Part shown: one piece after another, positions 3,697 through 62,671 of the stretch | Layout: each line of letters opens with the position of its first letter | How positions within the stretch are numbered: the stretch's first letter is position 1 | Virus record (IMG/VR): IMGVR_UViG_2915168811_000001 | Source: a virus | DNA length: 64,000 bases | Reading direction: 5' to 3' (one strand) | Notes under the pieces: generated by a model | Told to the model about the DNA's origin: nothing | The model's input: the letters and a program-made list of their open reading frames with translations, nothing else | Database searches by the model: none | Made by a program: the position numbers and the translations under genes

Positions 3697-3708
3697 AGTG
3701 ATGCGCGG
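3697..3708 (-). promoter_or_regulatory. Class A motif CCGCGCATCACT
   Basis: Exact copy upstream of 3359..3649. Confidence 0.75.
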
Positions 3709-4004
3709 CGCTACGATAGGCCGCGCGCCCCGGTGAGCGCCGCAAGGCCATTGTTCACAGATCCAGGCTCGTAGGCTGAATGCCGCTGATTCGCGTGCAT
3801 TCCGGGAAGCGATCGACTCCGCGAACCCGTACGATCACTGAGTGCAGGTAGGGCCCGCCGCGCTCAAAAGCTCGTCGGTTTCAGGGTTCCTCCAAGCGGG
3901 TGATCGAACGGCGCTTCGCCCGTTTGGAGGATCTCGCAATGGCTCTTCCCGTCAGGCGGTCCGCCGCGCTACGTTTGCCTGACACCCGCACCAAGGAGAA
4001 CCCC

Positions 4005-4100
4005 ATGAATAAGCCCGCCGCGCGCCCGACGTATCAACCGTCGACGCTGTCGCAGCCGCGCTCATGGCGTTCGAATGCGGGCACTCAGAAGCCCTGGTAG
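4005..4100 (+). CDS. Small ORF, 31 aa (MNKPAARPTYQPSTLSQPRSWRSNAGTQKPW)
   Basis: AAGGAG RBS 6 nt before ATG; followed by a terminator. Confidence 0.4.
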   Translation: MNKPAARPTYQPSTLSQPRSWRSNAGTQKPW

Positions 4101-4123
4101 CACTCCTCCAGGATCACTCTGAA

Positions 4124-4160
4124 CCCGCTCCGCCGACATTCGGCTTGGGCGGGTTTTTCA
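4124..4160 (+). terminator. Intrinsic terminator
   Basis: GC hairpin cccgctccgccga/tcggcttgggcggg followed by ttttt. Confidence 0.7.
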
Positions 4161-4174
4161 TTTCTCGGCATCCA

Positions 4175-4186
4175 CCGCGCATCACT
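4175..4186 (+). promoter_or_regulatory. Class A motif CCGCGCATCACT ahead of tRNA array
   Basis: Ends 18 nt before tRNA-Trp, immediately after a terminator. Confidence 0.8.
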
Positions 4187-4204
4187 GTAAGCGAAGCACC
4201 AAAT

Positions 4205-4280
4205 GGGGATGTAGCTCAGCTGGAAGAGCAGCGGTCTCCAAAACCGCAGGCCGCAGGTTCGAACCCTGTCAGCCCCGCCA
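4205..4280 (+). tRNA. trnW: tRNA-Trp(CCA)
   Basis: Cloverleaf, anticodon loop CTCCAAA, TTCGA loop, encoded CCA; one acceptor-stem mismatch. Confidence 0.93.
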
Positions 4281-4282
4281 CA

Positions 4283-4301
4283 CTTTGATAACTCAACAGC
4301 G
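4283..4301 (+). promoter_or_regulatory. rrn-leader/boxA-like element CTTTGATAACTCAACAGCG
   Basis: Close match to the TTGAGAACTCAACAG segment I recall from actinobacterial rRNA operon leaders. Confidence 0.5.
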
Positions 4302-4314
4302 CACCACAACACAC

Positions 4315-4397
4315 GGGCCGGTATCCAAACTGGCGAAGGAAGCTGACTGTAAATCAGCCACGAAGACACGCTGCGGGTTCGACTCCCGCCTGGCCCA
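4315..4397 (+). tRNA. trnY: tRNA-Tyr(GTA)
   Basis: GCTGA-CTGTAAA-TCAGC arm, long variable region, GGTTCGACTCC; no encoded CCA. Confidence 0.92.
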
Positions 4398-4399
4398 CA

Positions 4400-4479
4400 G
4401 GAGATTGCGCGGATTGAACTTCCGCATTTGCTGTCGCACGTTCTAGGCGTGCGGCTCCGCCACTGCGGGTATCTCCCCT
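4400..4479 (+). ncRNA. tRNA-like three-hairpin structure with CTA in the central 7-nt loop
   Basis: GGAGAT/ATCTCC closing stem; hairpins GCGGA/TCCGC, CGCACG-TTCTAGG-CGTGCG and CCGC/GCGG; no canonical T loop. Confidence 0.35.
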
Positions 4480-4480
4480 C

Positions 4481-4555
4481 CCGGATGTAGCTCAGCTTGG
4501 CTAGAGCACCCGCTTTGGGAGCGGGAAGTCGCAGGTTCGAATCCTGTCATCCGGA
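4481..4555 (+). tRNA. trnP: tRNA-Pro(TGG)
   Basis: CCCGC-TTTGGGA-GCGGG arm, CCGGATG/CATCCGG acceptor. Confidence 0.93.
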
Positions 4556-4822
4556 CCGCGGACGTGCCATGTGTACGAACCGTATCCGTCCCCGTCGAAT
4601 CGGCGAGGACAGCGCTCGAGACGGAAGTACTGCCGATCGAGAGCCTGCGGAGACTAGCTAAGTAGCGACTCTCGCGGTAGGCACCCAATACTTCCTGACG
4701 CGCACCGACCTGGTGGCGCCGCATGTTTTAGCTCAAGCGGGCATGCACTTAGACAGTCGGGAGACCGCAGAATCGTCGCACCGCGGAAAGGCGGCGGGAA
4801 CAGCGGCGAAACTCCAGGCCAT
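4556..4822 (+). ncRNA. Unidentified structured RNA (about 265 nt)
   Basis: Nested stems GGAAGTA/TACTTCC, TGCC/GGCA, GAGAG/CTCTC, GTCC-CCG/CGG-GGAC, GCATG/CATGC; no convincing ORF. Confidence 0.5.
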
Positions 4823-4895
4823 GCACCTCTAGCTCAGTTGGTAGAGCATCCGGCTTTTAACCGGCGGGTCCTGGGTTCGAGCCCCAGGGGGTGCA
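4823..4895 (+). tRNA. trnK: tRNA-Lys(TTT)
   Basis: Loop CTTTTAA, GCACCTC/GGGGTGC acceptor. Confidence 0.92.
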
Positions 4896-4955
4896 CGAAA
4901 ACGAAAGGTGCTATCGAGGCACGGCTGAGCCAGCGTATGCGAATCAGCCGAATAT

Positions 4956-5028
4956 TCCGACGTAGCTCAGCTGGCAGAGCGCCGCACTGTTAATGCGGAT
5001 GCCGCAGGTTCGAACCCTGCCGTCGGAG
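4956..5028 (+). tRNA. trnN: tRNA-Asn(GTT)
   Basis: CCGCA-CTGTTAA-TGCGG arm, TCCGACG/CGTCGGA acceptor. Confidence 0.93.
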
Positions 5029-5071
5029 CGGCCTGGTCAGAGTACGGCGTGCACGCCGCTGACCTGGCTTT

Positions 5072-5156
5072 GGATGGTTGGCAGAGCGGCCGAATGCACA
5101 GGTCTTGAAAACCTGAGCCCTTCACGGGGCCCCGAGTTCGAATCTCGGACCATCCG
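5072..5156 (+). tRNA. trnS: tRNA-Ser(TGA)
   Basis: CAGGT-CTTGAAA-ACCTG arm, long variable arm GCCC-TTCAC-GGGGC. Confidence 0.93.
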
Positions 5157-5311
5157 CTGGGGCGAGCGAGCCCTTCTGTGAGGTTTGCCACGGCAGGTCG
5201 ACAAACCAGAAGGGCGCGGTACGTGCGCGGCGCGGGTTGCCATCCGTGTCCAGAAATCCGGGGCTTCGGCTGCCGGTACCTGGGGGTCGATTTCCCGGGC
5301 GTTCCACAAAT

Positions 5312-5370
5312 GGCTCTGTACATCTCAACTGGTAGAGGTACGCGCGTCGGTTCGAGTCCGACCAGGGTTC
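5312..5370 (+). ncRNA. tRNA-like RNA lacking the anticodon arm
   Basis: Acceptor GGCTCTG/CAGGGTT, D arm CTC-AACTGGTA-GAG, perfect T arm GTCGG-TTCGAGT-CCGAC; only 8 nt between D and T arms. Confidence 0.55.
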
Positions 5371-5441
5371 GCCCTGTAGCTCAGACGGTAGAGCGAGAGG
5401 CCTGCGGGCCTCGGGTGCGGGTTCGAATCCCGCCGGAGCCG
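5370..5441 (+). pseudogene. Degenerate tRNA (6-nt anticodon loop CTGCGG; Arg(GCG)-like or undetermined)
   Basis: Normal D and T arms, mismatched acceptor, non-canonical anticodon loop. Confidence 0.55.
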
Positions 5442-5469
5442 CTGCAACCCAGAAACTGGGTTGCGATAT

Positions 5470-5545
5470 TCCCGGATGGTCTGTTGGCAGGCCGCCTCGG
5501 TTCTGGGCCGAGATGTATCCGCTGGTTCGATTCCAGATTCGGGAG
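5470..5545 (+). tRNA. trnQ: tRNA-Gln(CTG)
   Basis: CTCGG-TTCTGGG-CCGAG arm, TCCCGGA/TTCGGGA acceptor; slightly atypical variable/T region. Confidence 0.8.
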
Positions 5546-5549
5546 CTAT

Positions 5550-5623
5550 TCCCCCGTGGTGTAGCGGCAGCACACCTGACTTTGGATCAGGAAGCCTTGG
5601 TTCGAACCCAAGCGGAGGAGCCA
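5550..5623 (+). tRNA. trnQ: tRNA-Gln(TTG)
   Basis: CCTGA-CTTTGGA-TCAGG arm, encoded CCA. Confidence 0.93.
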
Positions 5624-6716: not shown

Positions 6717-7060
6717 GATGTGCTCGTTTCTGCCTCGGCGTCGACACTCGCGAGGTATTTCGTTCCCTCGCGTGAGATGTGGAAGATGGTCTGATGGATG
6801 TCGTTGTGTTCGGCAGACACCATCCCCAGATCCTTTACGCGGTACCCGAGACGGGCGCCGTTCATCGGCATAGTCCCGCCCTTGGAACCGCTGAAACCGG
6901 GACGTGACCGCGTCGTGCGACTCCAGGCCGGCGATTCAGGCCACACCTGCTCGGCAATGTACCGGCCAGGCGCGCCGCGGTCCCCCGCCGACGCGATCGC
7001 GCGCAGGGCGCGCAGCTGCGGGTCGGTGAGTCGAACTTGAATATCAGGCAGGGATTTCAT
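6713..7060 (-). CDS. Small wHTH-like hypothetical protein
   Basis: LTDPQLRALRAIA...LGMV...FHISREGTKYL; RBS AAGGAG; class A motif upstream. Confidence 0.55.
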   Translation of the reverse strand: MKSLPDIQVRLTDPQLRALRAIASAGDRGAPGRYIAEQVWPESPAWSRTTRSRPGFSGSKGGTMPMNGARLGYRVKDLGMVSAEHNDIHQTIFHISREGTKYLASVDAEAETSTS

Positions 7061-7095
7061 GTGAGGTGCTCCTTCGGCCGCGCGGTCTCAGTCAC

Positions 7096-7107
7096 AGTTA
7101 TGCGCGG
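7096..7107 (-). promoter_or_regulatory. Class A motif CCGCGCATAACT
   Basis: Overlaps the TAA stop of 7098..7784; upstream of 6713..7060. Confidence 0.75.
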
Positions 7108-7784
7108 TGCTGAAATCCCATGCGATCCAGGATCAGGGAGTTTGTGGTCTGGTCGTCTGTCACATCCCGGGTGACTCTGCGGAAGAGCTTCCGTCGACGG
7201 ACCGGGGTTCTATCCGGCATCGCGCCGATGAGGTCGAACTGCTTGAACTCCTCAAGCTGACCGATCCGTGCGACTTCTTCTAATAGCCAGGTGACCCCGC
7301 GACCACCCAGTACGGCCAATTGACGATCGGCGTCTGGGACGAGACTGAAGGGGGCTGCACTGAGGTCCTTGAACCATTCCGAACCGCTGTTGAACAGGTC
7401 AATGTAATCGATGATTTGCACACCCCACGCCCCGGCCTCGGACAGGTCTGCATACACGCGCCGAAGATCAGACTGGACGTTACGTTCCATGGTCGCCGTA
7501 TCGACGATCACCAGATCCGCGGTGCTGAGAACAACGCTTTCGATAAAAGCTGTCACATCCTCTTCCGGTACAGGCGGGTACCGCCCCTGGAAAGAGAGAT
7601 CAGCAACATCGACGAGCATCCCTCTACTTCGCGCCAGCGACGCCACCTCCGCGGCAAGAGTTGACTTCCCGCTCCCGCCTCTTCCTGACCAGACAATGAG
7701 GATTTCAGGAGCCTTCTTCTGCTGTTCGATAGTGGCGCTCGGTGCGAGTGCCGTGTCGCTGGTCGTGTCGTAGTGCTCGCTCAT
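7098..7784 (-). CDS. P-loop NTPase (ParA/MinD-like)
   Basis: GRGGSGKST Walker A, VADL, DLVIVDT. Confidence 0.7.
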   Translation of the reverse strand: MSEHYDTTSDTALAPSATIEQQKKAPEILIVWSGRGGSGKSTLAAEVASLARSRGMLVDVADLSFQGRYPPVPEEDVTAFIESVVLSTADLVIVDTATMERNVQSDLRRVYADLSEAGAWGVQIIDYIDLFNSGSEWFKDLSAAPFSLVPDADRQLAVLGGRGVTWLLEEVARIGQLEEFKQFDLIGAMPDRTPVRRRKLFRRVTRDVTDDQTTNSLILDRMGFQHRA

Positions 7785-10204
7785 CGCCCCAGCTCCTCGA
7801 ACTCGGCTGCGGCCATGACCTCGATGCCGAGCGCTTCGGCTTTGGCGAGCTTCGATCCCGCTTTGTCGCCGGCAATGAGCAGGTCGAGGTTCTTCGATAC
7901 GGAGGACGCGACGGTGCCGCCGTGCTCCTCGATACGCTCCTCCGCCTGCTTGCGGGACAGGGTCGGGAATGTGCCGGTGACGAGAACACGCTTGCCGGTG
8001 AGGGGCTGCACGGGGTGTGCTGATTGGCCAGCGTTTCGAGTGCTGGCCAACTTCGCGCGAATCTCGTCAGGGAGAAAGTCGCTCTTGGGAGCAGCCAGGT
8101 CGGATGTGCTGTTCGCTTCAGGTAGGTATTTCGACCAGTCCCAAGTCATCATCATCCGGGCGCTGCCGACCCACTTCCAGAGCCGCTCCATCACCTCGGG
8201 TTCGCGGAGTTGAGCCAAGGTACCTTCCCCGAACCCAGGGATGGACAGGATCTCCTCGTTCGTCATGTCATGCAGGTACAGGAACGGCCCCGTGCTCGTG
8301 TCCAGATATGCGGTGCCTCCGCGCGCATCAGCAATCGCTTGAGCGATCTTCTTCCCTGCTCGCACCCCAATACCTGTGGCGCCGACGGCGGCGATCCATT
8401 TGGCTGGATCCTGGGGTTCGCTTAGCTTGAGATCGATTTCCTCTGCAAGCTTGTCCACCAGCTTCTGAGTACCGCGCTCGAATGGAAGCACCTTTCGGAA
8501 CCTGAACGATTCAGCCAGCTCAGGGAAGTCAGTGATCTCCGGATTCGATGCCAGCAGGCGACTGACAACGTCTTCGCCGAGGCCGAGGATGTCGAGTTTC
8601 GACGCAGCGAAGCTGATCGCCTTCACCGGATCGGTGCCGTTGTCGTGCACGAAATCACGGCCCTCGCGGCGGTAGGGAGTAGTAATTTTCCAGGCGATGA
8701 GGCAGCCTTCGAGCCAGCGTTGCACGGCGAAAACCATTTCATCCTGATCAAACGCTGCAGCGAGGCTGCGCTCGATGTCGTCCCCAAACTCAGGGGGTGC
8801 AAAAAACGCCGAGTGGTCGAAATACTCGCGGTCTTCAAGATCAGCCTGGCGCTCCCGGTTCCCGTCAAAATCAGTAACGAGCTTGATGTCGTCCCCTCGA
8901 CCGGGTTGGAAATTGATGACTGTAATGAGGCGGTTGTCCCTGCTTCGCCCGAACTCCTGCCAGCACAGCACTCCGGCTCCGATCGGCCATCCGTCAGGCC
9001 CGGGGATCGGCGTCGCGCCCGCGGCGTGCTCACCGATGCGGCGCACGACGTTCGGGATGACTTCGTTCGCTCGGGTGACTTCGATGGTGTCGCCGATCCA
9101 CACGTCGAGCTCTTCGAGGAAGGCGACGTTGTTCAGGGTGGCGCGCGACACCATCGCACCGGACAGCTCGACGGTGTCGAACACCGCGGTGGGTACAACG
9201 CGGCCGGTGCGGGTTTCTGACCACTCCACGGCGCGCAGTACGGTCTGCTTGGGGCGATTCGGGAACTTGTAGGCGAGCGCCCAGCGCGGGGCAGTCGACG
9301 ACTCGCCCAGCTCGGCGCGGAGCGAGGGGTCGGTGAGCTTCACGACGACGCCGTCGGTTTCGACGTCGAGGAGTTCCGCTTTGGCGTCGAGCCAAGCGAC
9401 AGCGGCGGCGACCGGCGTGCGGTGGTCCGCGAAAGGCGACTGCGGCAGCAGGTGCCGGGCGAAGTGCGAGGTCAAGCCTGACGGCTTCGCGCTCAGATCG
9501 GTGGCTTCCGTGGATCGGTCTGCGAGGGAGACTGCGCCGTCGGCGTCGTACGCCAGGAAGGTGAGGAGTCGCCCCGCTTCTGCGGCTGCAATTGCAAGGG
9601 CATCCCGCTTCGCGGGCTTGCCGATGTTCCGTGCGATTTTGGCGATAAGGCCAGCGGCAGCGTTGCGCGGATTCGAGAGCAGTTCCTCGTTGACGGACGC
9701 CAGCACTTCGTTGTTGTGATTGAACTTGGAGCGTGTCATGACGATCTCGCCCCGCACTTCGCCGGCGCCATCCAGCTTGAGGGGGAAACCCTGCCGGGCG
9801 AAAATCTCCCGGATCGCAGGCGTGATGTCCTCGCCGCGCTCCCCGTCGCCCCGGGTGAGGGCCCGCTCGAGATGCCCGTCGGCGCCGTAGCGGACGGACG
9901 CGGCCAGCCCGTCCCACTTCGGCTCGATCGCGTACGCGGCGTCAGGGTGTGAGGCCAGCAGGGCTTCGAGGTCGGCGACGTCGTGCACCTTTTTCAGGCT
10001 GAGCATGCGTCGCCCGTGCGCGATCTTGCCGCCTGTGGCGCCGTGCCCAACCTGCTCGGCTACACCGCGGGACGCCAGTTCGGCGGTGAGGCTGTCGAAG
10101 GCATCATCGGTCAACGGTGATCCGTCGCCGCCGTAGTAGGCGTCGGCGGCGCGGTCACGCTCCGCAATCAGGTCGTCGGTCGCGCGGGTGCTGAGGTCGG
10201 ACAT
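7781..10204 (-). CDS. ligA: NAD+-dependent DNA ligase with atypical central insert
   Basis: EPKWDG adenylation motif, EVRGE, TDGVVVK, PRWALAYKF, OB fold, HhH, C-terminal BRCT (VLVTG...VSKNLDLLIAGDKAGSKLAKA). Confidence 0.95.
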   Translation of the reverse strand: MSDLSTRATDDLIAERDRAADAYYGGDGSPLTDDAFDSLTAELASRGVAEQVGHGATGGKIAHGRRMLSLKKVHDVADLEALLASHPDAAYAIEPKWDGLAASVRYGADGHLERALTRGDGERGEDITPAIREIFARQGFPLKLDGAGEVRGEIVMTRSKFNHNNEVLASVNEELLSNPRNAAAGLIAKIARNIGKPAKRDALAIAAAEAGRLLTFLAYDADGAVSLADRSTEATDLSAKPSGLTSHFARHLLPQSPFADHRTPVAAAVAWLDAKAELLDVETDGVVVKLTDPSLRAELGESSTAPRWALAYKFPNRPKQTVLRAVEWSETRTGRVVPTAVFDTVELSGAMVSRATLNNVAFLEELDVWIGDTIEVTRANEVIPNVVRRIGEHAAGATPIPGPDGWPIGAGVLCWQEFGRSRDNRLITVINFQPGRGDDIKLVTDFDGNRERQADLEDREYFDHSAFFAPPEFGDDIERSLAAAFDQDEMVFAVQRWLEGCLIAWKITTPYRREGRDFVHDNGTDPVKAISFAASKLDILGLGEDVVSRLLASNPEITDFPELAESFRFRKVLPFERGTQKLVDKLAEEIDLKLSEPQDPAKWIAAVGATGIGVRAGKKIAQAIADARGGTAYLDTSTGPFLYLHDMTNEEILSIPGFGEGTLAQLREPEVMERLWKWVGSARMMMTWDWSKYLPEANSTSDLAAPKSDFLPDEIRAKLASTRNAGQSAHPVQPLTGKRVLVTGTFPTLSRKQAEERIEEHGGTVASSVSKNLDLLIAGDKAGSKLAKAEALGIEVMAAAEFEELGR

Positions 10205-10244: not shown

Positions 10245-10256
10245 AGTGATGCGCGG
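10245..10256 (-). promoter_or_regulatory. Class A motif CCGCGCATCACT
   Basis: 40 nt upstream of the ligA ATG. Confidence 0.8.
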
Positions 10257-11392: not shown

Positions 11393-11404
11393 AGTGATGC
11401 GCGG
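11393..11404 (-). promoter_or_regulatory. Class A motif CCGCGCATCACT
   Basis: 41 nt upstream of the DUF3039 ATG, just after a terminator. Confidence 0.8.
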
Positions 11405-13379: not shown

Positions 13380-13391
13380 ATGTATGCGCGG
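13380..13391 (-). promoter_or_regulatory. Variant motif CCGCGCATACAT
   Basis: Upstream of the lipoprotein peptidase; shares the CCGCGCATA core. Confidence 0.5.
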
Positions 13392-14073: not shown

Positions 14074-14085
14074 AGTAATGCGCGG
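14074..14085 (-). promoter_or_regulatory. Class A motif CCGCGCATTACT
   Basis: Upstream of the 13510..14022 lipoprotein. Confidence 0.75.
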
Positions 14086-14116: not shown

Positions 14117-14130
14117 GGATCGTATGTGTG
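14117..14130 (+). promoter_or_regulatory. Class B motif GGATCGTATGTGTG
   Basis: At the 5' end of the FtsK-like gene. Confidence 0.65.
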
Positions 14131-15843: not shown

Positions 15844-15855
15844 CCGCGCATCACT
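15844..15855 (+). promoter_or_regulatory. Class A motif CCGCGCATCACT
   Basis: 6 nt after the FtsK-like stop, upstream of 15929. Confidence 0.75.
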
Positions 15856-15884: not shown

Positions 15885-15898
15885 GGATCGCATGTGTG
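15885..15898 (+). promoter_or_regulatory. Class B motif GGATCGCATGTGTG
   Basis: 30 nt before ATG 15929. Confidence 0.7.
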
Positions 15899-15928
15899 TG
15901 AGTAGACGACAACAATTTGGAGGCACCA

Positions 15929-16498: not shown

Positions 16499-16509
16499 CC
16501 GCACATACT
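16499..16509 (+). promoter_or_regulatory. Class C motif CCGCACATACT
   Basis: Starts exactly 18 nt before ATG 16517. Confidence 0.75.
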
Positions 16510-18475: not shown

Positions 18476-18487
18476 CCGCGCATAACT
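18476..18487 (+). promoter_or_regulatory. Class A motif CCGCGCATAACT
   Basis: Upstream of 18544. Confidence 0.75.
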
Positions 18488-19964: not shown

Positions 19965-20128
19965 GCGTGCGTGGACGCAGAAGTTGCGCGGCAGTCGATG
20001 CCATGGGAATGCTCCTCGGTAACGGGATGCTCGGCCTGTTCGGCCTCACCCCATTGATGCGCGGCAGCTGGCAGGGGTTTTGACGCTCTCAGCTGTTTTC
20101 CAGGTTCACGAGGGAATTCGGGCTGATC

Positions 20129-20142
20129 GGATCGCATGTGTG
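20129..20142 (+). promoter_or_regulatory. Class B motif GGATCGCATGTGTG
   Basis: Upstream of the adhesin gene. Confidence 0.7.
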
Positions 20143-20220
20143 TGGGAGAAGGCAATTTTTCTTGCCGGAAGTGATGCGCTGCCACAAGGGCAGGCAGACT
20201 GACCCGAAAGGCACCACACG

Positions 20221-27354: not shown

Positions 27355-27365
27355 AGTATGTGCGG
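27355..27365 (-). promoter_or_regulatory. Class C motif CCGCACATACT
   Basis: Starts exactly 18 nt before ATG 27347. Confidence 0.75.
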
Positions 27366-29671: not shown

Positions 29672-29683
29672 AGTAATGCGCGG
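29672..29683 (-). promoter_or_regulatory. Class A motif CCGCGCATTACT
   Basis: Just downstream of the large FtsK stop, upstream of 29620. Confidence 0.75.
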
Positions 29684-34844: not shown

Positions 34845-34857
34845 ACACATACGATCC
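34845..34857 (-). promoter_or_regulatory. Class B motif GGATCGTATGTGT
   Basis: Heads the small-TM / NERD / FtsK operon. Confidence 0.7.
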
Positions 34858-34928: not shown

Positions 34929-34940
34929 CCGCGCATCACT
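34929..34940 (+). promoter_or_regulatory. Class A motif CCGCGCATCACT (leaderless spacing)
   Basis: 6 nt before ATG 34947. Confidence 0.85.
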
Positions 34941-39195: not shown

Positions 39196-40962
39196 TTACG
39201 CGGTAGCCAGCGCGGCGTTTGCCGCACTAGAAGTCGGAGTGAACAGCTGGGCGAGAGTGGCCGGACCGCCAGGCTGGGGATAGATGAGCGTGTGCTCGAG
39301 GGAGTCCTGGTTCCAGATCGCCTCGGCGGTCATCATCAGCGACACTGCAAGCGTTTCGATGCGCTGAACCCAGTTGGCCCAGTCATCCTCAGTTCCGCCG
39401 AACACCGGAGTGATGGTGTCCACGGCAGACTTCACCGAGTAGACCGCCCGTGAGGCGGCGCCGAGATTCAGGCTCTGATTGCCGCTTACGATCTTTTCGA
39501 CCCGTCGAGTAATCGTGCCGAGGACGGACGCAAAGCCGTTCAAGCTGGTCGCGGTCAGCGGCTGTGCGTTGTACCGCAGCGTCCGGAGCGCGAACGTCGC
39601 CAGATCGGAGGAGTTGCGTGCGGCGTGCGACATCAGATTGAGCTCGACACCGACCGTCTCCTGATCCATGCGCGCTTCTGGGCGAGGTGCTCTAGTGGAA
39701 GACATTTTCAACCTTTCAAATGGTGAGAGTGATTCGACCTCAGTGATGCGCGGTGCTTCGCTCACCGGTGCAGGCGGCGGAGTTTCCGTTTCTGCTGGCG
39801 TCTGTGCGGCGGCCACCTCTTCAGCTGTCGCTTCCCGAACAACGTCGACACCGCGCTCGTTCGGTGCGATCAGGAACGTGGGCGCCTCGGAATGGAATCG
39901 GCTGTCGTCGAGCACGCCCAGGTCAGTACCGAGTGAAGTGATTACATGAATGCCGAGCTCGTCCGCGGAACGCTTAGTGCGCGCTGAGGCGTCAGCTTTC
40001 ACCGCCTTCTCAAGAGCGACCTCGAGCGGCTTCCAGCGAGTACCGACCGCATTGGCAGGCACCGGGATATTCGCGACAGGGCACGAACGGGCGAGGTCGC
40101 ACCAGGAGCAGAGGCCGCCTGGGGTCGCCGGGAACAGCTTCGCTTTCACGAGGCCTGTTAGTTTTGCTCGCGTTTTCTTGAACCCGTCGAGTGTTGCCTG
40201 CTGCTCACTCTCGACAATGTCGAGGTCGCGAATGATTGGCTCACGCGGGTAGATGATCCGGAGCGAATCGACTGGCACCCCGAAGTTCGTGACGTACAGG
40301 TCCCGGTACAGATGCTGCTGCGCTTTGTACCCGTCATGAAATTTTGGGTTCGGGACACCTTTCCAGACGCCGAACTTGTAGTCATCTGATCCGAAGGACC
40401 CGTCTGGAAGACGCCGAACACGGTCGATCTTGCCCGTGGACGATACCCCGTTGGACGTCAGAAGACCTTTGAGCTCCACTTCAGTGCCGACGACGTCGAC
40501 GTCCTGCGGATTCTCGAGAAGCACAATACGCATCGCCCAGTTCAAGACGGTGTCGTGCCATTCAGCGCGAAGCTCGCGGTTAGCTTCCAGTGTCTGGGGG
40601 AACTGATCCACGAGCTTCGACTCAGACCATTTCCGCTCAGACACTTCGTCAGCGAGCCGGCGGAACTCGTCCTCCAGTCGCTTCGCCGGCGGAAGGAGAT
40701 AGAAATGCTCCAGAATGTCGTGCGAACCCGAGCCGAGCACGTTCGCATCGAAGGGGTGCTCATGACGGGGGAGGTTGCATTTCGCGGCGTGGGACGCAGG
40801 GCACTGCTCCACGGCTTCAGCCACCGAGTGTGACAGCAGCTCGCGGTCAGCGTTTTTGGCCTGCTCGGCGCTGACGGAGAGCGCATACGAGCCGGGGGAC
40901 TGCTCGATGAAACGCATCCCCTTGACGCTTTTCGGCTTCCGCGCCTGAAATGGTTCGCTCAT
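39196..40962 (-). CDS. PD-(D/E)XK RecB/AddB-type nuclease (Cys-cluster) fused to a helical C-terminal domain
   Basis: EQCP, GSGSHDILE, TGKIDRV, DDYKFG, QQHLY, LCSWCDLARSC. Confidence 0.8.
   Translation of the reverse strand: MSEPFQARKPKSVKGMRFIEQSPGSYALSVSAEQAKNADRELLSHSVAEAVEQCPASHAAKCNLPRHEHPFDANVLGSGSHDILEHFYLLPPAKRLEDEFRRLADEVSERKWSESKLVDQFPQTLEANRELRAEWHDTVLNWAMRIVLLENPQDVDVVGTEVELKGLLTSNGVSSTGKIDRVRRLPDGSFGSDDYKFGVWKGVPNPKFHDGYKAQQHLYRDLYVTNFGVPVDSLRIIYPREPIIRDLDIVESEQQATLDGFKKTRAKLTGLVKAKLFPATPGGLCSWCDLARSCPVANIPVPANAVGTRWKPLEVALEKAVKADASARTKRSADELGIHVITSLGTDLGVLDDSRFHSEAPTFLIAPNERGVDVVREATAEEVAAAQTPAETETPPPAPVSEAPRITEVESLSPFERLKMSSTRAPRPEARMDQETVGVELNLMSHAARNSSDLATFALRTLRYNAQPLTATSLNGFASVLGTITRRVEKIVSGNQSLNLGAASRAVYSVKSAVDTITPVFGGTEDDWANWVQRIETLAVSLMMTAEAIWNQDSLEHTLIYPQPGGPATLAQLFTPTSSAANAALATA
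39742..39753 (-). promoter_or_regulatory. Class A motif internal to nuclease gene
   Basis: Followed by GAAAGG RBS and in-frame ATG 39705. Confidence 0.7.
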
Positions 40963-41578: not shown

Positions 41579-41590
41579 AGTGATGCGCGG
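41579..41590 (-). promoter_or_regulatory. Class A motif CCGCGCATCACT (leaderless spacing)
   Basis: 6 nt before ATG 41572; back-to-back with the copy at 41665. Confidence 0.85.
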
Positions 41591-41664: not shown

Positions 41665-41676
41665 CCGCGCATCACT
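41665..41676 (+). promoter_or_regulatory. Class A motif CCGCGCATCACT
   Basis: Upstream of the RNase H gene. Confidence 0.8.
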
Positions 41677-42667: not shown

Positions 42668-42679
42668 CCGCGCATCACT
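42668..42679 (+). promoter_or_regulatory. Class A motif CCGCGCATCACT (leaderless spacing)
   Basis: 6 nt before ATG 42686. Confidence 0.85.
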
Positions 42680-49897: not shown

Positions 49898-49909
49898 AGT
49901 GATGCGCGG
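49898..49909 (-). promoter_or_regulatory. Class A motif CCGCGCATCACT
   Basis: In the gap upstream of dnaE. Confidence 0.8.
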
Positions 49910-52900: not shown

Positions 52901-53061
52901 GAGTAGTCGGCGAGCTCTTTCGCCGGTTTCGTGTTCTCGCCGCTCGAGAATGAGCGGTAGCCACGGACCGCGGCGACCAGAGGGGCCACCTGGCTGTCCG
53001 CTAGCTTCGCGGCGCCGGAGCCAAACACGAACGGGAAGTAGTCGTCAGGGGTGAACGTCAT
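49927..53061 (-). CDS. Primase-helicase-like protein (Toprim/DUF3854-like N-terminus, P-loop C-terminus)
   Basis: IMITEGTLKED, IAFDGDVKSNPNV, GVDDYL; GTPGSGKS, VADD. Confidence 0.7.
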   Translation of the reverse strand: MTFTPDDYFPFVFGSGAAKLADSQVAPLVAAVRGYRSFSSGENTKPAKELADYSSFGKKVAVPFKAPEVQSLFRDGGDVMVMPIFSLAGVLDSETDSPAWPSSNQVRPENPRVKDGKTMKYVFPKDAGTFVSLHPAFTKAWVDSAQRIMITEGTLKEDALVTALLLDAGVTEAELGLPSVARGDIDSWARSTGFALLRALFDRVPVEKRITPVSASGVQSWNTAQFATLSVQGRTVTIAFDGDVKSNPNVWREAEKLWSYLSDRGAHPRILALGSAAARMEIAATEKFRNVGQTVDGKVVALGVDDYLSHVGTLETLLSYVDTELPVRPEANDDGYRIGDWRVSADGLSTEQFVSGQFGNTWQPMIPIGGVVTSITVNRTPTLEEVRQGRIHPSEDRQVTQRANLVLSWRSEFTGEQESVTLEIETAMLNSTPDRWTKEVQSSLPPKLTMHPSWPPQGKEAVSWVQAIKRNSGIDWTSKRSWGATGWVPCANGDPVYVIGHQVLGPTRDSELSTGLGVDDAVLPNVFDFGVADNWWDLVDPSGAGELSESGLAQYRAQVKADIEQVYHHFLETGVWKNHREYGIVLLASALRTTLPKRPGVPLYLSGTPGSGKSYSIAMAMAAWQSRPGMWSAQHLPGSASSTAFALEKIMSVCGGGMWVADDLAPSVSQSAAVNAEAGMESIVRSVFNDSSRQRGTKDGGLAKSGQPRAMLAITAENGLTSTSVLERVLELKFESGIIDDKASKALISEALDTLALSRVAGAMVRFWYQKHQNVGRVGVSTTWLEKIENLDGVLKNVRHRMTQHLTEHYGLAKGASDRRVQLVSEVVLVLDYMRRLYEWSGGDKNSMLALSLGVPSNYEKTRSGYSSIPGFFNVTLEMLDMASEQLKVLTEKKNGASLMHALSDALAGGKGHLANPNQPGIPPFIGQEHEAINRALGWEIVRGDWTSRGESIGFAGNLDHGKYAVFNSSNAFQLAQRHYPAQVPHGQKAEGSWRAAIAEGLAVAPSGESQTAARSYAQRVSMGKGRVRGVLVPLESIVGSISD

Positions 53062-53104: not shown

Positions 53105-53116
53105 AGTGATGCGCGG
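53105..53116 (-). promoter_or_regulatory. Class A motif CCGCGCATCACT (one arm of an inverted repeat)
   Basis: Upstream of the primase-helicase; paired with CCGCGCATCA at 53136. Confidence 0.8.
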
Positions 53117-53167
53117 TACAGACCCGTTTTAGGGTCCGCGCATCAGCTGGGCGGGGAGGGGTAAGCG

Positions 53168-54046
53168 CTAGGCGTATTCGCGCTGAGCGGCGGCGAACAC
53201 GCCCACCTCTTCGGAGATGATGGCCAGTGCCGCCTTCGCCTCCGCTTTCCGGCACTGCGTTGCGTTGCAGAGCGCCATGACCCCTGGGGTGCTTCCCTCG
53301 AAGACGCATCGCATCCATGCGATCGCGCAGCGCATCAGCACCTTGTCTCCCGGGTATGAGTCACGCAAATGCGAGGTGAACGCACGCACCGCTTCATCGA
53401 GCTCCGCTCGAATGAAAGGCTGCTCGGCGGCTGGATCCTCCATGTCGAACTTCTCGGAACCGTCTTCGTAGCGCTCCGAAGTGGACAGAGGATCGATGGG
53501 TGCGAAATCTGCCTCTGACAGGATCATCCCGCTGCGAGCGGCGTCTTTGCGCCGGGCGATCATGCGCTCGTTTACATGCTCGATGACTTCAGCGTCCGTT
53601 GCATCCTCGCCGGTGAGTGCGCGCAGCTCAGCCCGCCCCTTCACGATCTGCTTCTTTCGTCGAACCACTCCGGTGAGCTCCGTCATCCCGGTCCGAGCGC
53701 CGGACTCCTGGTAGACCATCACCGCATACCGTGCGCAGCCGTAGAGGTGCGGGATGTAGAGCGCGCGAATCTTCTCCACTTGCGGGGCGGTCACTCCGAC
53801 CAACCATTCGTACACGGTGAGGTTGACGATCTGCGCGACATCGCTGCTTTCATCCACCAGCTGATAGCGGCGCGCCAGGGAGAGCGACCACTTCTTCAGG
53901 ACGTCAGTGTCCTGAAGATGCCGGATGGCGACTTCCGCGAGCTTTCGTCTGCCGATGTCTCCTTCCGGCAGGGATGCGATCGGAGCGATCAGGTCCCCGA
54001 GCTTCTGGTTCTGGGTCGCGGCGTCGACGTTCACGAAGACGGTCAT
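53168..54046 (-). CDS. Sigma-70-family (group 3-like) factor
   Basis: Region 2-like LARRY...DVAQ...HLYGCARYAV; region 3-like ELRALTGEDATDAEVIEH; degenerate C-terminal HTH; RBS AAGGAG before ATG 54046. Confidence 0.6.
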   Translation of the reverse strand: MTVFVNVDAATQNQKLGDLIAPIASLPEGDIGRRKLAEVAIRHLQDTDVLKKWSLSLARRYQLVDESSDVAQIVNLTVYEWLVGVTAPQVEKIRALYIPHLYGCARYAVMVYQESGARTGMTELTGVVRRKKQIVKGRAELRALTGEDATDAEVIEHVNERMIARRKDAARSGMILSEADFAPIDPLSTSERYEDGSEKFDMEDPAAEQPFIRAELDEAVRAFTSHLRDSYPGDKVLMRCAIAWMRCVFEGSTPGVMALCNATQCRKAEAKAALAIISEEVGVFAAAQREYA

Positions 54047-54063: not shown

Positions 54064-54447
54064 TCACAGGGCGGGCTTGTGAGTGAGGGGGAAGCCGGGC
54101 CATGGCGGGCCGTGCGGCTTGATGAGGTTTGAGAAGGCGACGAGGCGACGTCCGCACGCGCGCGAGTCGATGAGCCAGCCGACTGAGAGCCGGGACGCGC
54201 TCATGGAGGTCGGGCAGACCAGCGCGAGTTCCCGAACGAGCTGCTTGCGTCGGCGTTCTCCCCAGCCGTGCTGGGTGGCCATCAGACGGCGGATTGTGAT
54301 TGCGCGCAGCGGGGCGCCGTCCGGGCCGGCGGCGTACGCGATCAGGTCAGCGACCGAGGCGAGCCCTTCGGAGAGGGAGATCAGCCAGTCGCCGCGGGTG
54401 CGGTTAGCAACCGCGCGAGCGGCTGTGAGATCTGCGGCGACAGTCAT
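54064..54447 (-). CDS. mIHF-like (H2TH) nucleoid-associated protein
   Basis: AARAVANRTRGDWL..LSEG..SVADL...ITIRRLM...GWG aligns with the actinobacterial IHF pattern. Confidence 0.55.
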   Translation of the reverse strand: MTVAADLTAARAVANRTRGDWLISLSEGLASVADLIAYAAGPDGAPLRAITIRRLMATQHGWGERRRKQLVRELALVCPTSMSASRLSVGWLIDSRACGRRLVAFSNLIKPHGPPWPGFPLTHKPAL

Positions 54448-55370
54448 GCCGCGGCGTCCTCTTCGAAGAGAAGGTCTTGCATCTCCTCGGCGACACTGAA
54501 TGACGCTGCGTTGACGCTCGCGTCAACCGTCAGGGAGCGAAGGATCCGCTCGTCGGAGAGTCCAGAGCGTTCCGGATACCGGTCCTTCCAGACCTTCTTG
54601 ATCGCTTCGCTTGACGTGTTGGCGCCGAGCTCGCGGTGGATGAGGCGAATAGAGCGCCCGAACGTGGGGTCACCGATCGCGCGGCGAACTGAGCTCTCGA
54701 GGGCTGACTCGGCGTTGCGAACGATGTACGTGACGCGGTCACCGACCGTGCTGGGAAGGTCTCCGACGGCGCGCTCGACGATGATCGGGAAGAGCACTTT
54801 GCGCTTGCGGTCGATGTCGCCGAGGAGGAAGTCATCGGCGAGCGATTCCTGCTCGACGGAGTCGATGACTCCGCTGCCACCCAGGGTGCCTTCGCTGATT
54901 TCAGCTGCGACCTTCTTCGACGCGATGCCAAGGAGGTGCACGACGTACGGGCGGAATAGTTCTGAGAGCTCCCACTGGGACCTGACACCGACCTGCTTGA
55001 TGCGCTCGATCTCGCGGGCAAGAACTCGCGGAGTGCGAAAACGTGCGATACGAAGGTCGATCGAATCGGTCGGCTCGGCGCGCGTGTGCAGGCGCACTTG
55101 GCCAGACTGCGGACCGACGTATCGGTCTGCGTGCCGCCAGGTCGCCTCGAGCTCTTCCCCATCCACGAGCGCGCCGACAAGAGGGACATCCCACGTGATC
55201 GCCACGTTCGTGTCCCGCAGGAACAGCGGGAGCGCGTAGAGAAAACCCGGCGCCGGCGAGTGCACTGTCGCGGTGACCTCGGCGGCTGACCGTGCGTGAC
55301 GGATGTCGGTGAGAAGAGCACTGCATTCCTTGGAGCTCGGGGCGAACGCACCGGCGTATGGGCGGCTCAT
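54444..55370 (-). CDS. Second sigma-like protein, apparently lacking region 4
   Basis: ELSELFRPYVVHLLGIASKKV (region 2.1-like); SIRLIHRELGANTSSEAI (region 3-like); weaker resemblance than 53168. Confidence 0.4.
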   Translation of the reverse strand: MSRPYAGAFAPSSKECSALLTDIRHARSAAEVTATVHSPAPGFLYALPLFLRDTNVAITWDVPLVGALVDGEELEATWRHADRYVGPQSGQVRLHTRAEPTDSIDLRIARFRTPRVLAREIERIKQVGVRSQWELSELFRPYVVHLLGIASKKVAAEISEGTLGGSGVIDSVEQESLADDFLLGDIDRKRKVLFPIIVERAVGDLPSTVGDRVTYIVRNAESALESSVRRAIGDPTFGRSIRLIHRELGANTSSEAIKKVWKDRYPERSGLSDERILRSLTVDASVNAASFSVAEEMQDLLFEEDAAA

Positions 55371-59748: not shown

Positions 59749-59760
59749 AGTGATGCGCGG
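59749..59760 (-). promoter_or_regulatory. Class A motif CCGCGCATCACT
   Basis: Upstream of the UvrD-like gene. Confidence 0.8.
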
Positions 59761-59781
59761 TGCTCTGCGAGAGAGAGCCGA

Positions 59782-60771: not shown

Positions 60772-60780
60772 GAGGACTTA

Positions 60781-60789
60781 TATGTGCGG
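60781..60789 (-). promoter_or_regulatory. Class C motif CCGCACATA
   Basis: Starts exactly 18 nt before ATG 60771. Confidence 0.75.
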
Positions 60790-60818
60790 CGAGCCCGAAA
60801 TTCGGGACCACCGGCCTC

Positions 60819-60827
60819 CCGCACATA
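60819..60827 (+). promoter_or_regulatory. Class C motif CCGCACATA
   Basis: Starts exactly 18 nt before ATG 60837. Confidence 0.75.
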
Positions 60828-60836
60828 TGGGTAACC

Positions 60837-61550
60837 ATGAGTAGCGCAAGAAACCAGCCCCGAATTTCAGCAGGAAATCGCGTCGCCGGACGCCCCGCCG
60901 GCGGGCAGTTCGCCGCCACAGTCAGACTGTCCGGGGTAGCTCCGCAGCTCATTCCCTCCACAGGGCCGGCAGAGCAGCCGGCAGAGCAGCCCGTGTCACG
61001 GTTTGCGCCACCAGCTCACGTCGCTGCATATGAGCCACCCGTCATTTGGGATGCAGAGTTTGCTGTCACTCCGTTTGACCTCCTCCCGGAGCTCCCGGCC
61101 TCCGGCGGCAGTGAGCGGGAGTGGTCGGACTACGTCTCGCATCGAAAACGGATCGGAGACGCCGTGCCCATCTCGAGGTATCAGGTGCGAATGCAGCATG
61201 AAGCGAACGCCGCCGCGCTGTTCAATGAGCTGGAGGACATGCGCGGGATGGTGCCCGTCGATGACCCTGCCTGGCTGCAGAAACGAGATGCCGCTCTGAT
61301 CCAGTCAGCACTTGCCGCGGACCCTGACGCTACGGAGTTGATCATCACCCGGGACATGGCAAGCAACATCACTGTCGAGCTGGATGTGCCGCAGGACCTC
61401 TACCTGCGCCCCAACCTCCAGCAAGTCGCACTCCCGATGCGGGTTAAGCGCGCGATTGGAGTCGCCACAACTGCGGGGCTGGAGTGGAAGTACGGCCCGG
61501 TGGGGGACCGTGGAGCGACACAGGTTGTGCGGATCCCGCTGCGCAGCTGA
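60837..61550 (+). CDS. Hypothetical protein with N-terminal GGQF peptide
   Basis: MSSARNQPRISAGNRVAGRPAGGQF. Confidence 0.75.
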   Translation: MSSARNQPRISAGNRVAGRPAGGQFAATVRLSGVAPQLIPSTGPAEQPAEQPVSRFAPPAHVAAYEPPVIWDAEFAVTPFDLLPELPASGGSEREWSDYVSHRKRIGDAVPISRYQVRMQHEANAAALFNELEDMRGMVPVDDPAWLQKRDAALIQSALAADPDATELIITRDMASNITVELDVPQDLYLRPNLQQVALPMRVKRAIGVATTAGLEWKYGPVGDRGATQVVRIPLRS

Positions 61551-61565
61551 GGGGCCCTGAAACAA

Positions 61566-61600
61566 AAACGCCCCGACTTCGAGATGAAGTCGGGGCGTTT
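61566..61600. terminator. Bidirectional terminator
   Basis: aaacgccccgacttc/gaagtcggggcgttt. Confidence 0.85.
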
Positions 61601-61610
61601 GCTGTTTCAG

Positions 61611-62585
61611 CTACGTTCCGGGGTCGGGAGTGACCGCAGACCGGTTTTCGGCCGCGACCATCGCCTCCAATTCATTCGCCTCATGTGCCAGCTGCGCCAA
61701 CACTTCCGAGTGCGCCTGGTAGACGCCGGCGCAGAGTGGCATCAGGAAATCGATCGCCTCTTGCAGCGTGATCGCCGGTTCATCGGCGTTCGCCGCATGC
61801 AGAAGTGACTGCACCTGAGGGTCGACTGGTTCGCCCGTGTCGGTGACGGCGCCGCCGAGCCATCCGATCGCTGCGAGGAATCCCAGCCGCTGGGTTTCCT
61901 GCGTCAGGTTCACATCGCGGCCAGCTGCGAGGTCTTCGGCGAGATCCTGGCACACCCGTCCGAGGTAGTCCGCTGACTGCGCCCATTGCGCGCGCTGGAA
62001 TTTCTCGTGATCGAGCAGCGCGTTCTTGGCGCAATCTGACTCCGGCCCGAACAGCTCGAACATCGGAGAGAGGTCGATGGCATCGAGCTCGGCATCCTCC
62101 TCCCCGTCGCACCAGAGCACGATCCGCGCCTGCACGCGCTCATCGTTCACATCGAGTCCGTGGAACGCCAGGACGTCCAGCCATGACCCCATCTCGATGT
62201 CGAGCAGCCCGGCCTCGACGCATTGCATCGTCACCCGAAGCAGCCACTCCTCGTTGGTTTCCACGCGAGGCGCACCATCTGGTTCCTCGATGAGCTGCAC
62301 CCGGTATGCGATGTTCGCCGGAAGCCACAGCAGTGGATGCCAGAACATTGCCGGGTTCACGCCCTTCCACCGCAGCATCTTGCCGTCACTGCCGCGGGCG
62401 GCTTGCGGGATCGGGAACGCCACCAGCGGCGACAGGACCACGTCCTCCAGGTCAAGGCCGGTGTCATCCATGAACTGCGTGAACCGATCAACGAACAGCT
62501 GCAGGTCAGAGGAGATAATCACCCCTTCGCCCGGTGCAAGCAAATACCCCCGTCGGAGCTGGAGCTCCGGTGTCTGATCGGTCAT
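61611..62585 (-). CDS. Acidic hypothetical protein
   Basis: RBS GAAAGGA before ATG 62585. Confidence 0.75.
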   Translation of the reverse strand: MTDQTPELQLRRGYLLAPGEGVIISSDLQLFVDRFTQFMDDTGLDLEDVVLSPLVAFPIPQAARGSDGKMLRWKGVNPAMFWHPLLWLPANIAYRVQLIEEPDGAPRVETNEEWLLRVTMQCVEAGLLDIEMGSWLDVLAFHGLDVNDERVQARIVLWCDGEEDAELDAIDLSPMFELFGPESDCAKNALLDHEKFQRAQWAQSADYLGRVCQDLAEDLAAGRDVNLTQETQRLGFLAAIGWLGGAVTDTGEPVDPQVQSLLHAANADEPAITLQEAIDFLMPLCAGVYQAHSEVLAQLAHEANELEAMVAAENRSAVTPDPGT

Positions 62586-62617
62586 TGGGTGGGCCGTCCT
62601 TTCATTGCGTCTACCTC

Positions 62618-62631
62618 CACACATACGATCC
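62618..62631 (-). promoter_or_regulatory. Class B motif GGATCGTATGTGTG
   Basis: 32 nt before ATG 62585; back-to-back with a class A copy. Confidence 0.7.
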
Positions 62632-62659
62632 GGCGGGCACGTCACCCTCAACGCCGGCG

Positions 62660-62671
62660 CCGCGCATCACT
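62660..62671 (+). promoter_or_regulatory. Class A motif CCGCGCATCACT
   Basis: Upstream of the 62717 operon. Confidence 0.8.

Follow-up and report, generated by a model that had tools for sequence, protein, structure and literature searches.

We describe here a repeated 12-nucleotide word, CCGCGCATHACT, in a 64 kb stretch of DNA (hereafter, the window) that comes from the IMG/VR virus record IMGVR_UViG_2915168811_000001, is part of a 217.8 kb contig and, judged by its gene content, belongs to a large actinobacterial plasmid or integrative element. From its numbers, orientation and spacing to genes, the identification of the word as a promoter is well supported, and its recognition by a dedicated sigma factor is plausible. 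Taken as a whole, we consider it probable that the word defines an element-specific promoter class that is read by the element's own divergent proteins of the sigma-70 family.

A rigid word oriented with downstream genes

An exact scan of the window found 18 copies of CCGCGCATHACT, the same 18 that had been picked out by eye in an earlier note on this DNA, against 0.07 expected (100 dinucleotide-preserving shuffles, with a maximum of 1 copy), in agreement with the estimate given there of well under 0.1 copies by chance. The word is rigid: with up to two mismatches allowed, only 34 copies are present in the window, about 18 of which are expected by chance. All 18 exact copies are co-oriented with a downstream start codon or tRNA array, as claimed in that note, one of them facing the array. 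In 17 cases, a start codon that opens an open reading frame (ORF) of at least 60 amino acids (aa) follows within 12–73 nt, and the remaining copy lies 19 nt upstream of tRNA-Trp, the head of an array of nine tRNAs. In three copies, the ATG (34947, 41572 and 42686) is located exactly 6 nt 3' of the word, without a Shine-Dalgarno sequence, which was also correctly noted before; the other copies that precede start codons are followed by a normal Shine-Dalgarno sequence. About 17 of the 18 copies are non-coding, in a window that is approximately 83% coding according to ORF calls based on GC content at third codon positions, and the sole truly intragenic copy (39742–39753) lies in the gene for a PD-(D/E)XK nuclease.

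When the 18 copies are aligned, the conserved block extends from two bases 5' of the word (C, then a purine) through the last T. A purine is found 7 nt after the final T (offset 18) in all 18 copies and is preceded by a pyrimidine at offset 17 in 15 of them. No shared −35 element is apparent across the 18 aligned copies, the only hint being a C in 14 of these, 17 nt before the word. If the purine is taken as the transcription start, the stretch from −12 to −7 is ATCACT, with no TANNNT. The sites of this word, hereafter class A, are the following:

3697..3708, minus strand: class A core (CCGCGCATCACT); the ORF that follows starts at 3649
4175..4186, plus strand: class A core directly after a T-run, before tRNA-Trp; heads the tRNA array at 4205-5623
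7096..7107, minus strand: class A core (CCGCGCATAACT); the ORF that follows starts at 7060
10245..10256, minus strand: class A core, 52 nt upstream of ligA (7781-10204), Shine-Dalgarno sequence present
11393..11404, minus strand: class A core before the ORF starting at 11351
14074..14085, minus strand: class A core, TACT variant, divergent from a class B box (see below) at 14117
15844..15855, plus strand: class A core in tandem with a class B box at 15885, before a gene starting near 15917
18476..18487, plus strand: class A core, AACT variant, before a membrane-protein gene (18544-19914)
29672..29683, minus strand: class A core, TACT variant, followed by a small ORF; lies downstream of the gene for a 1512-aa FtsK-like protein
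34929..34940, plus strand: class A core with leaderless-type ATG at 34947, 376-aa ORF
39742..39753, minus strand: class A core inside the PD-(D/E)XK nuclease gene (39196-40962), followed by a Shine-Dalgarno sequence and an in-frame ATG at 39705
41579..41590, minus strand: class A core with leaderless-type ATG at 41572, 69-aa ORF
41665..41676, plus strand: class A core, 54 nt upstream of the gene for RNase H (41719-42657)
42668..42679, plus strand: class A core with leaderless-type ATG at 42686, gene for a GmrSD_C/HNH protein whose N-terminus is signal-like; the SNF2 helicase gene comes next
49898..49909, minus strand: class A core before dnaE (45682-49860)
53105..53116, minus strand: class A core, 55 nt upstream of the gene for the primase-helicase (49927-53061)
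59749..59760, minus strand: class A core before the UvrD gene; heads a co-directional run of UvrD, DUF2637, ParA, sigma-like, IHF-like and sigma genes
62660..62671, plus strand: class A core before an ORF at 62717, divergent from a class B box at 62619-62631

The run of genes from UvrD to sigma presumably forms a single operon. An imperfect inverted copy of the word, CCGCGCATCAGC, at 53136–53147 (plus strand) faces the exact copy at 53105–53116 (minus strand) across about 19 nt; the pair makes up a hairpin at the sigma gene's 3' end, possibly a terminator built from the promoter word.

Related elements carry sister words

Relatives of the element were found through its primase-helicase; single-protein scans of viral and genome contigs recovered none, so that an alignment of this protein was needed there. 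An alignment-based scan of species genomes with this protein yielded 33 loci, some of them chromosomal, in Microbacterium, Arthrobacter, Pseudarthrobacter, Sinomonas, Kocuria, Curtobacterium (plasmid pCPAA3), Brevibacterium, Branchiibius, Microlunatus, Nakamurella, Mobiluncus and other hosts. A search of PLSDB added eight plasmids of 375–608 kb, including pACHL01 of Pseudarthrobacter chlorophenolicus A6, with matches only in Arthrobacter, Pseudarthrobacter, Paenarthrobacter and Curtobacterium. A search with the primase-helicase also gave relatives at 27–52% identity, whose contigs have a common gene order: methylase, UvrD, DUF2637, ParA, three proteins of about 310, 130 and 295 aa in that order, primase-helicase and DnaE. 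The family consists of megaplasmids and integrated elements, mostly of Micrococcales.

Each relative has its own over-represented word at the matching intergenic positions, for example, before UvrD, primase-helicase, DnaE and tRNAs; in particular, the spot 5' of the primase-helicase gene that is orthologous to the class A site at 53105 is occupied by a sister word in the loci L002–L006. The sister words, by locus, plasmid, host or metagenome-assembled genome (MAG), are:

L002 and L004: CCGCGCATTC
L001: CCGCGCATAG
pCPAA3: CCGCGCATAGG, with one copy before the same tRNA-Trp
L005 and Microbacterium gorillae (M. gorillae): CCGCGCATGTG
Nakamurella MAG: CCGCGCAT(A/G)T
Arthrobacter and pACHL01: CCGCACACAT
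L032: CCGCACACCT
Mobiluncus MAG: CCCCACACGG
Branchiibius: GTCGCACCGT
Leucobacter: CGCGTCCTATAG

On comparison of these words, the 5' half (about CCGCRCA, mostly the octamer CCGCRCAY) is family-wide, and the 3' letters are lineage-specific. Even the intragenic site recurs: a word followed by a Shine-Dalgarno sequence and an ATG is present within the nuclease gene, each time in the element's own variant, in L002 (20577), L004 (19399) and pACHL01 (L039, 16785). In the window and in L002, this ATG lies in frame; the recurrence of the arrangement suggests a separately expressed C-terminal product.

The sister word is private to the element in M. gorillae. In the 4.5 Mb chromosome of this bacterium, 51 of the 54 copies of CCGCGCATGTG fall between 2.452 and 2.637 Mb, and 3 are found elsewhere. 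Given that 51 of 54 copies are inside, the word outlines an integrated element of 185 kb, and the host does not use it; in this relative, then, the word is not equally common on the host chromosome, the outcome that according to the earlier note would have refuted its proposal. The lack of a shared −35 element, asserted for the window in the earlier note, extends to some relatives only. In the class A sites of the window (n = 18) and in the M. gorillae class (n = 53), no −35-like element was found upstream, whereas the main class of pACHL01 has a −35-like YGGNGAG located 15–21 nt before the octamer.

Fixed spacing to start codons and leaderless geometry

At seven sites in the window, the octamer is followed, after 10 nt, by a gene-opening ATG. 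Three of these belong to class A, and the other four are all the copies in the window of a related word, CCGCACATA (class C), each of which is of the leaderless type:

16499..16507, plus strand: class C core (CCGCACATA) with leaderless-type ATG at 16517, gene for an M78-like protein
27357..27365, minus strand: class C core with leaderless-type ATG at 27347, 408-aa ORF
60781..60789, minus strand: class C core with leaderless-type ATG at 60771, gene for a D12 adenine methyltransferase
60819..60827, plus strand: class C core with leaderless-type ATG at 60837, 237-aa ORF

The same geometry is observed across the family. An ATG or GTG located 9–10 nt after the octamer coincides with an independently called gene start in L001 (1910), L002 (18779), L003 (20052) and L004 (17645), and with a RefSeq-annotated start in pACHL01 (342867; L039 position 22962). 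The distance from octamer to start, pooled over all loci, peaks at 8–10 nt, with 77 cases against about 21 expected (the flanking distances hold about 7 each); the reversed-word control gave 10 cases in all and no peak. On pACHL01, there are 139 exact copies of CCGCACACAT and none of a control word. The base at offset 17 of these sites is a purine in 125 of the 139 and A in 92, with T and G next in approximately 80 each; in 77 of the 139, offset 17 or 18 is where an ORF of 40 aa or more begins. Of the 53 sites in the M. gorillae island, 33 are of the leaderless type, with an ORF opening at that offset.

Leaderless mRNAs are common in Actinomycetota. A start codon at a fixed distance, with no room for a ribosome-binding site, is the signature of such mRNAs and would place the word at about −18 to −7. 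The fixed spacing to gene-opening starts, together with the purine at the predicted +1, argues for the −10 position, and in this respect CCGCGCATHACT is a well-supported candidate for a promoter core. The copy in front of the tRNAs likewise fits promoter function. The spacing differs slightly within the family, being 10 nt at all leaderless-type sites of the window and 9 nt in most relatives, so that in the latter the family-invariant A falls at −11. The statement in the earlier note that T, rather than the A conserved in SigA promoters, occupies −11 therefore depends on spacing: it holds with the 10 nt of the window and fails with the 9 nt of most relatives.

Candidate readers encoded next to parA

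The ParA gene of the window is followed by a cassette of three genes:

53168..54046, minus strand: gene for a divergent sigma-70-family protein of 292 aa that comprises domain 2, domain 3 and a C-terminus similar to domain 4; a candidate for reading the word
54064..54447, minus strand: gene for an sIHF/mIHF-like protein of 127 aa
54444..55370, minus strand: second sigma-like gene, 308 aa, with weaker evidence; candidate reader

This cassette (ParA, sigma-like, IHF-like, sigma) is syntenic beside parA in at least 16 relatives, and the pACHL01 orthologues of its products are named 'HTH domain-containing protein' and 'hypothetical protein' in RefSeq. Searched singly, none of the three cassette proteins of the window matches a Pfam family.

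The 292-aa protein led, in a profile search, to a family of 283 proteins. An alignment of 57 members matches FliA/sigma-28 (1rp3; E = 1.3e-4) over regions 2–3, and the other PDB matches of this profile are mostly SigA, RpoD and RpoS chains, including region 3 of many primary sigmas. Among the 57 family members, the Pfam matches comprise Sigma70_r3 in 27, Sigma70_r2 in 3, Sigma70_r4 in 1 and generic helix-turn-helix (HTH) families in several. In the AlphaFold model of the 292-aa protein (pLDDT 87), nearly all top Foldseek matches are sigma factors. Residues 13–122 superpose on domain 2 of sigma-E and SigW at 2.6–2.8 Å (Z = 9); domains 2–3 fit sigma-S, SigA and sigma-28 at about 5 Å. The best Z of the model is 10.6, to Staphylococcus aureus SigB. 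Full-length alignments were obtained to SigB, SigA and sigma-S, and the C-terminal residues 210–291 are modelled, with confidence, as a four-helix domain resembling region 4. By family profile and predicted fold, the product of 53168–54046 is a very divergent sigma-70-family protein.

The only PDB matches of the 127-aa protein are sIHF (E = 0.014) and mIHF (E = 0.65). For the 308-aa protein, the sequence search of PDB yielded only spurious antibody matches; its model (pLDDT 83) aligns to domain 2 of mycobacterial SigA (4x8k; 121 of 122 residues, 17% identity) and to domain 3, with a beta-sheet insertion in domain 2 and no domain 4. As modelled, the product of 54444–55370 looks like sigma domains 2–3 without domain 4.

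The proposal in the earlier note that the word is read by an element-encoded sigma factor is made plausible by the sigma-70-family nature of one candidate and the resemblance of the other to domains 2–3; the pairing of sigma and word is what we infer. The analogy drawn there with the phage T4 protein gp55 fares less well. Late promoters of T4 are −10-only, and gp55 lacks domain 4. The 292-aa protein appears to have a domain-4-like C-terminus and, for this reason, would not itself be a gp55-like truncated sigma, and neither sigma-like protein has a PHROG match that would indicate homology to gp55 or gp33; only the 308-aa protein lacks domain 4 in its model, with sigma-like matches at Z of 7–8.

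The expression of the cassette itself seems to be connected with the word. In the window, the run that includes the cassette is headed by the class A copy at 59749, and the parA operon of M. gorillae has a copy of the leaderless type directly at its head; both arrangements suggest positive autoregulation. A consensus scan of the sigma operon region for primary-sigma promoters gave nothing beyond chance, and no start-up promoter was identified upstream of parA.

Further sigma genes are present in relatives. In pACHL01 (NC_011879.1, 378959–379423, plus strand), an ORF with a strong Sigma70 region 2 (87 bits) and region 3 encodes a canonical sigma besides the cryptic ones, and the M. gorillae island contains weak sigma matches, for example, to region 2 at 2556028–2556189. 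In the distant relative L005, a WhiB-family gene (7296–7685, minus strand) is located between ParA and the sigma-like cassette, which may be another sign that the cassette deals with RNA polymerase.

Additional putative promoter classes and near-variants

The class A word appears to be one of at least three related promoter classes in the element, namely, A (CCGCGCATHACT), C (CCGCACATA) and B (GGATCGYATGTGT). The class B box is present in five copies:

14117-14129, plus strand: class B box
15885-15897, plus strand: class B box
20129-20141, plus strand: class B box
34845-34857, minus strand: class B box
62619-62631, minus strand: class B box

By manual count, a purine is found 9 nt after ATCGYATG in all five, and the boxes are often divergent from, or in tandem with, class A sites. 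Class B resembles the second promoter class of pACHL01, TCTACGCATGTT, which has 30 copies on that plasmid, with a purine at offset 17 in each of the 30; the second class in M. gorillae is CCGCAGGGGTGG, with 17 copies. A further word, GGCGGCCAGTTCGCC, occurs on pACHL01 (NC_011879.1) in about 40 copies and may be a coding repeat or another signal.

Two near-variants of the class A word were recorded in the window:

13380..13391, minus strand: near-variant CCGCGCATACAT, intergenic, before a gene for a 599-aa protein; possibly a further promoter
20053-20064, minus strand: near-variant CCGCGCATCAAT

The latter and another one-mismatch copy (20170–20181, minus strand) aim into the antisense strand of the membrane-protein gene 18544–19914. 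The 488-aa antisense ORF found there looks like a shadow frame, being rich in Arg, Ala and Pro and having no homologues. These one-mismatch copies may be antisense promoters or non-functional.

A model of element-specific transcription and its alternatives

Under the proposed model, CCGCGCATHACT would be the core recognition element of an element-specific promoter class, spanning roughly −18 to −7 (extended −10 and −10), and the purine found 7 nt beyond the final T would be the first base transcribed. If this purine is the A of an ATG, the mRNA would be leaderless; elsewhere, it would begin a 30–70 nt leader with a Shine-Dalgarno sequence or the tRNA array. Class A would drive the replication and maintenance backbone, that is, ligA, dnaE, the genes for the primase-helicase, RNase H and SNF2, UvrD with its downstream genes, and the tRNAs. 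The reader most likely would not be the primary sigma of the host, better candidates being the parA-adjacent products of 53168–54046 and/or 54444–55370, with the IHF-like protein encoded between them; the sigma-like genes, lying in a run headed by the same word, would activate their own expression.

Several observations weigh against this model. The 292-aa protein of the window has no Pfam match of its own, the sigma assignment coming from the family profile and from a predicted all-helical fold, for which Z of 8–10 is only moderate, and the 308-aa protein is sigma-like at Z of about 7–8 only. Because relatives carry further sigma genes, the reader could be another protein, and the link between either sigma-like protein and the word is circumstantial. 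The position of the transcription start is deduced, family-wide, from spacing. The privacy of the word is established in the relative M. gorillae rather than in the window's own host. It is also possible that a repressor additionally binds at the same sites.

The strongest alternative, which we regard as unlikely, is that the word is a promoter read by a host factor, either the primary sigma assisted by an element-encoded activator on the GC-rich half or a conserved alternative sigma of the host, in which case the parA-adjacent sigma-like genes would do something else. The CCGCRCA half is kept in hosts from several families, the majority of them in Micrococcales, most relatives have A at −11, as in ordinary −10 elements, and these elements need to be expressed on first entry into a cell, all of which is compatible with a host reader. 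However, with only 3 of the 54 copies outside the M. gorillae island, no host regulon in that genome uses the word, the 3' letters vary between elements even though the hosts stay related, and the sigma-like cassette is a core feature of the backbone. The sites themselves also differ from those of the host. Leaderless promoters of Actinomycetota that depend on SigA have TANNNT ending about 7 nt before the start codon. The sites described here are similar in that the −10 ends 6–7 nt before an ATG or GTG that doubles as the predicted 5' end of the transcript. Unlike the SigA sites, they have ATCACT in the window, where no TANNNT is found at −12 to −7, or, in relatives, stretches running into GTG or ACAT, and their conservation reaches six more bases upstream and is near-absolute.

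Less likely still, and in our view quite improbable, is a main role as operator, in which a repressor encoded by the element would bind the word in the manner of the mycobacteriophage L5 stoperators, or of the transcription-factor site proposed on the megaplasmid pMP7017, and the word would overlap ordinary promoters. The L5 stoperators are asymmetric and orientation-biased and have no fixed distance to starts. The word shares with them the asymmetry and the orientation: it is a 12-mer with many intergenic copies, all oriented with transcription and often located after a stop codon or terminator. The pMP7017 motif, which overlaps a −10, was likewise read by Dineen et al. as a transcription-factor site (PMC10832533). 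In contrast to stoperators, the sites described here head transcription units and keep a constant distance to start codons; the spacing to gene-opening starts is fixed in more than 100 sites, with a purine at the predicted +1 and no other −10 present. It is highly improbable that the word acts in RNA, whether in processing or as a start-associated translation signal (cluster K mycobacteriophages carry 'start-associated sequences'), or that it serves DNA metabolism, for example, in partition, nicking or methylation: the 9–10 nt to the ATG do resemble Shine-Dalgarno spacing, but the word is unlike a Shine-Dalgarno sequence, 15 of the 18 copies lie 24–73 nt before a start that has its own, one precedes untranslated tRNA genes, and the strict orientation with genes on both strands is unlike centromere or iteron arrays, which form separate tandem clusters in relatives.

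The promoter class read by the element's own sigma-like proteins thus remains the preferred interpretation. A bolder version of it, which is tentative and has some chance of being correct, is a self-contained phage-like programme. It would involve two cryptic sigma-like proteins (one of these domain-4-less, with a beta-sheet insertion and gp55-like in function) and the IHF-like protein; two or three classes of private promoters that act at different times (in establishment as opposed to maintenance or transfer); and 50–140 mostly leaderless units per replicon, insulated from host control, across the family.

Gene content and other features of the element

The replication and repair genes of the window encode an NAD-dependent ligase, DnaE, the 1044-aa primase-helicase, RNase H, a UvrD-like helicase, an SNF2 helicase and the PD-(D/E)XK nuclease; the transfer and partition genes encode two FtsK/SpoIIIE-type translocases and ParA-type ATPases; and a D12 methylase, a DUF2637 protein and tRNAs are present as well. 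Because of the FtsK-like translocases and ParA, the element is apparently a plasmid or an integrative conjugative element. No near-identical plasmid was found in PLSDB. A phage origin was considered and rejected: no nucleotide or protein match was found in the phage collection and none in viral contigs, and ten large ORFs scanned against PHROGs included no phage structural-protein family.

Within the tRNA array, a 266-nt gap (4557–4822) has no Rfam match at gathering score, and the tRNA-like gene at 5370–5442, which has an irregular anticodon loop according to ARAGORN, nevertheless scores 42.6 bits as a tRNA in Rfam. The DnaE genes of L002 (13415–18757) and L003 (12599–17143) contain intein and LAGLIDADG domains, which the DnaE of the window (1392 aa) lacks. 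In two relatives, tandem short repeats are located directly upstream of the primase-helicase gene, at 9565–9867 in L031 (CCTTCGACAC, eight copies) and at 9093–9277 in L022 (GGTGGTCCAC, five copies and degenerate ones); these resemble iterons or a centromere and are separate from the promoter word, which is dispersed.

Relationship to known systems and implications

Bacteriophages provide functional parallels. The T4 late promoters TATAAATA, which are recognized by gp55, and the SPO1 promoters recognized by gp28 and gp33/34 are cognate to phage-encoded sigmas. The likeness is that a mobile element would redirect the host core RNA polymerase to private promoters; furthermore, class A appears to be −10-only, and the 308-aa protein seems to be without domain 4, like gp55. 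The differences from T4 are the domain-4-like end of the 292-aa sigma, the −35-like element of pACHL01 and the fact that the element described here is not a phage. Another parallel is with group 3 sigmas, for which Koo et al. (2009) reportedly described a composite 'extended −10', GCCGATAA for Escherichia coli sigma-28 and CCCCATNT for sigma-32, with a defined −35 also needed. As in those promoters, a long GC-rich block abuts an A-T step in the −10, and the best PDB match of the 292-aa family is FliA/sigma-28; the need for a defined −35 sets group 3 promoters apart, the words appear to resemble each other only in part, and the protein identity to FliA is very low.

Among plasmids, the suggestion in the earlier note that a plasmid-wide private regulon might be undescribed does not stand, given the precedents of SigN on pBS32 and the motif of pMP7017, which are the nearest parallels in print. 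SigN drives plasmid genes after DNA damage. SigN (ZpdN) is described as a sigma factor encoded on the large Bacillus subtilis plasmid pBS32 (PMC6751061, PMC10601692), and it is in being encoded on a large plasmid that it resembles the proteins described here. The difference is that the system described here belongs to another phylum and combines 18–139 very rigid, mostly leaderless sites per replicon with at least two or three promoter classes, and that its replication and partition backbone includes two sigma-like genes plus an IHF-like one. The Bifidobacterium megaplasmid pMP7017 carries a plasmid-private 34-bp motif in 19 copies at the −10 region, driving about 24% of its coding capacity and absent from host chromosomes; the motif is AT-rich, with a canonical TATACT −10, and was read as a transcription-factor site, with no sigma proposed (PMC10832533). 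Like the element described here, pMP7017 is an actinobacterial conjugative megaplasmid with a tRNA array and a plasmid-private −10 motif. The sequence of that motif is, however, unrelated to CCGCGCATHACT, and the PLSDB search with the primase-helicase gave no plasmid of the pMP7017 type.

A literature search, with most subscription journals outside its reach, found no description of these words or of the sigma-like proteins and nothing relevant on the promoters of pACHL01 or pCPAA3. The plasmid pACHL01, which was sequenced years ago, carries 139 copies of its word. If confirmed, these findings would mean that a widespread family of actinobacterial plasmids and integrated elements of 180–600 kb transcribes most of its backbone from its own promoter code. 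If so, the element would control its own transcription much like a phage does, and the readers would be sigma-like proteins that are currently annotated as 'hypothetical' or 'HTH domain-containing'. Because the motif pins the leaderless ATG, many gene starts in these elements could be corrected. The motif is also a simple marker for delimiting integrated copies, as illustrated by the M. gorillae island, which was outlined by the motif alone, and the family may offer orthogonal sigma/promoter pairs for high-GC Gram-positive hosts. More generally, these elements would represent a large-scale plasmid example of a strategy that is otherwise known mainly from phages.

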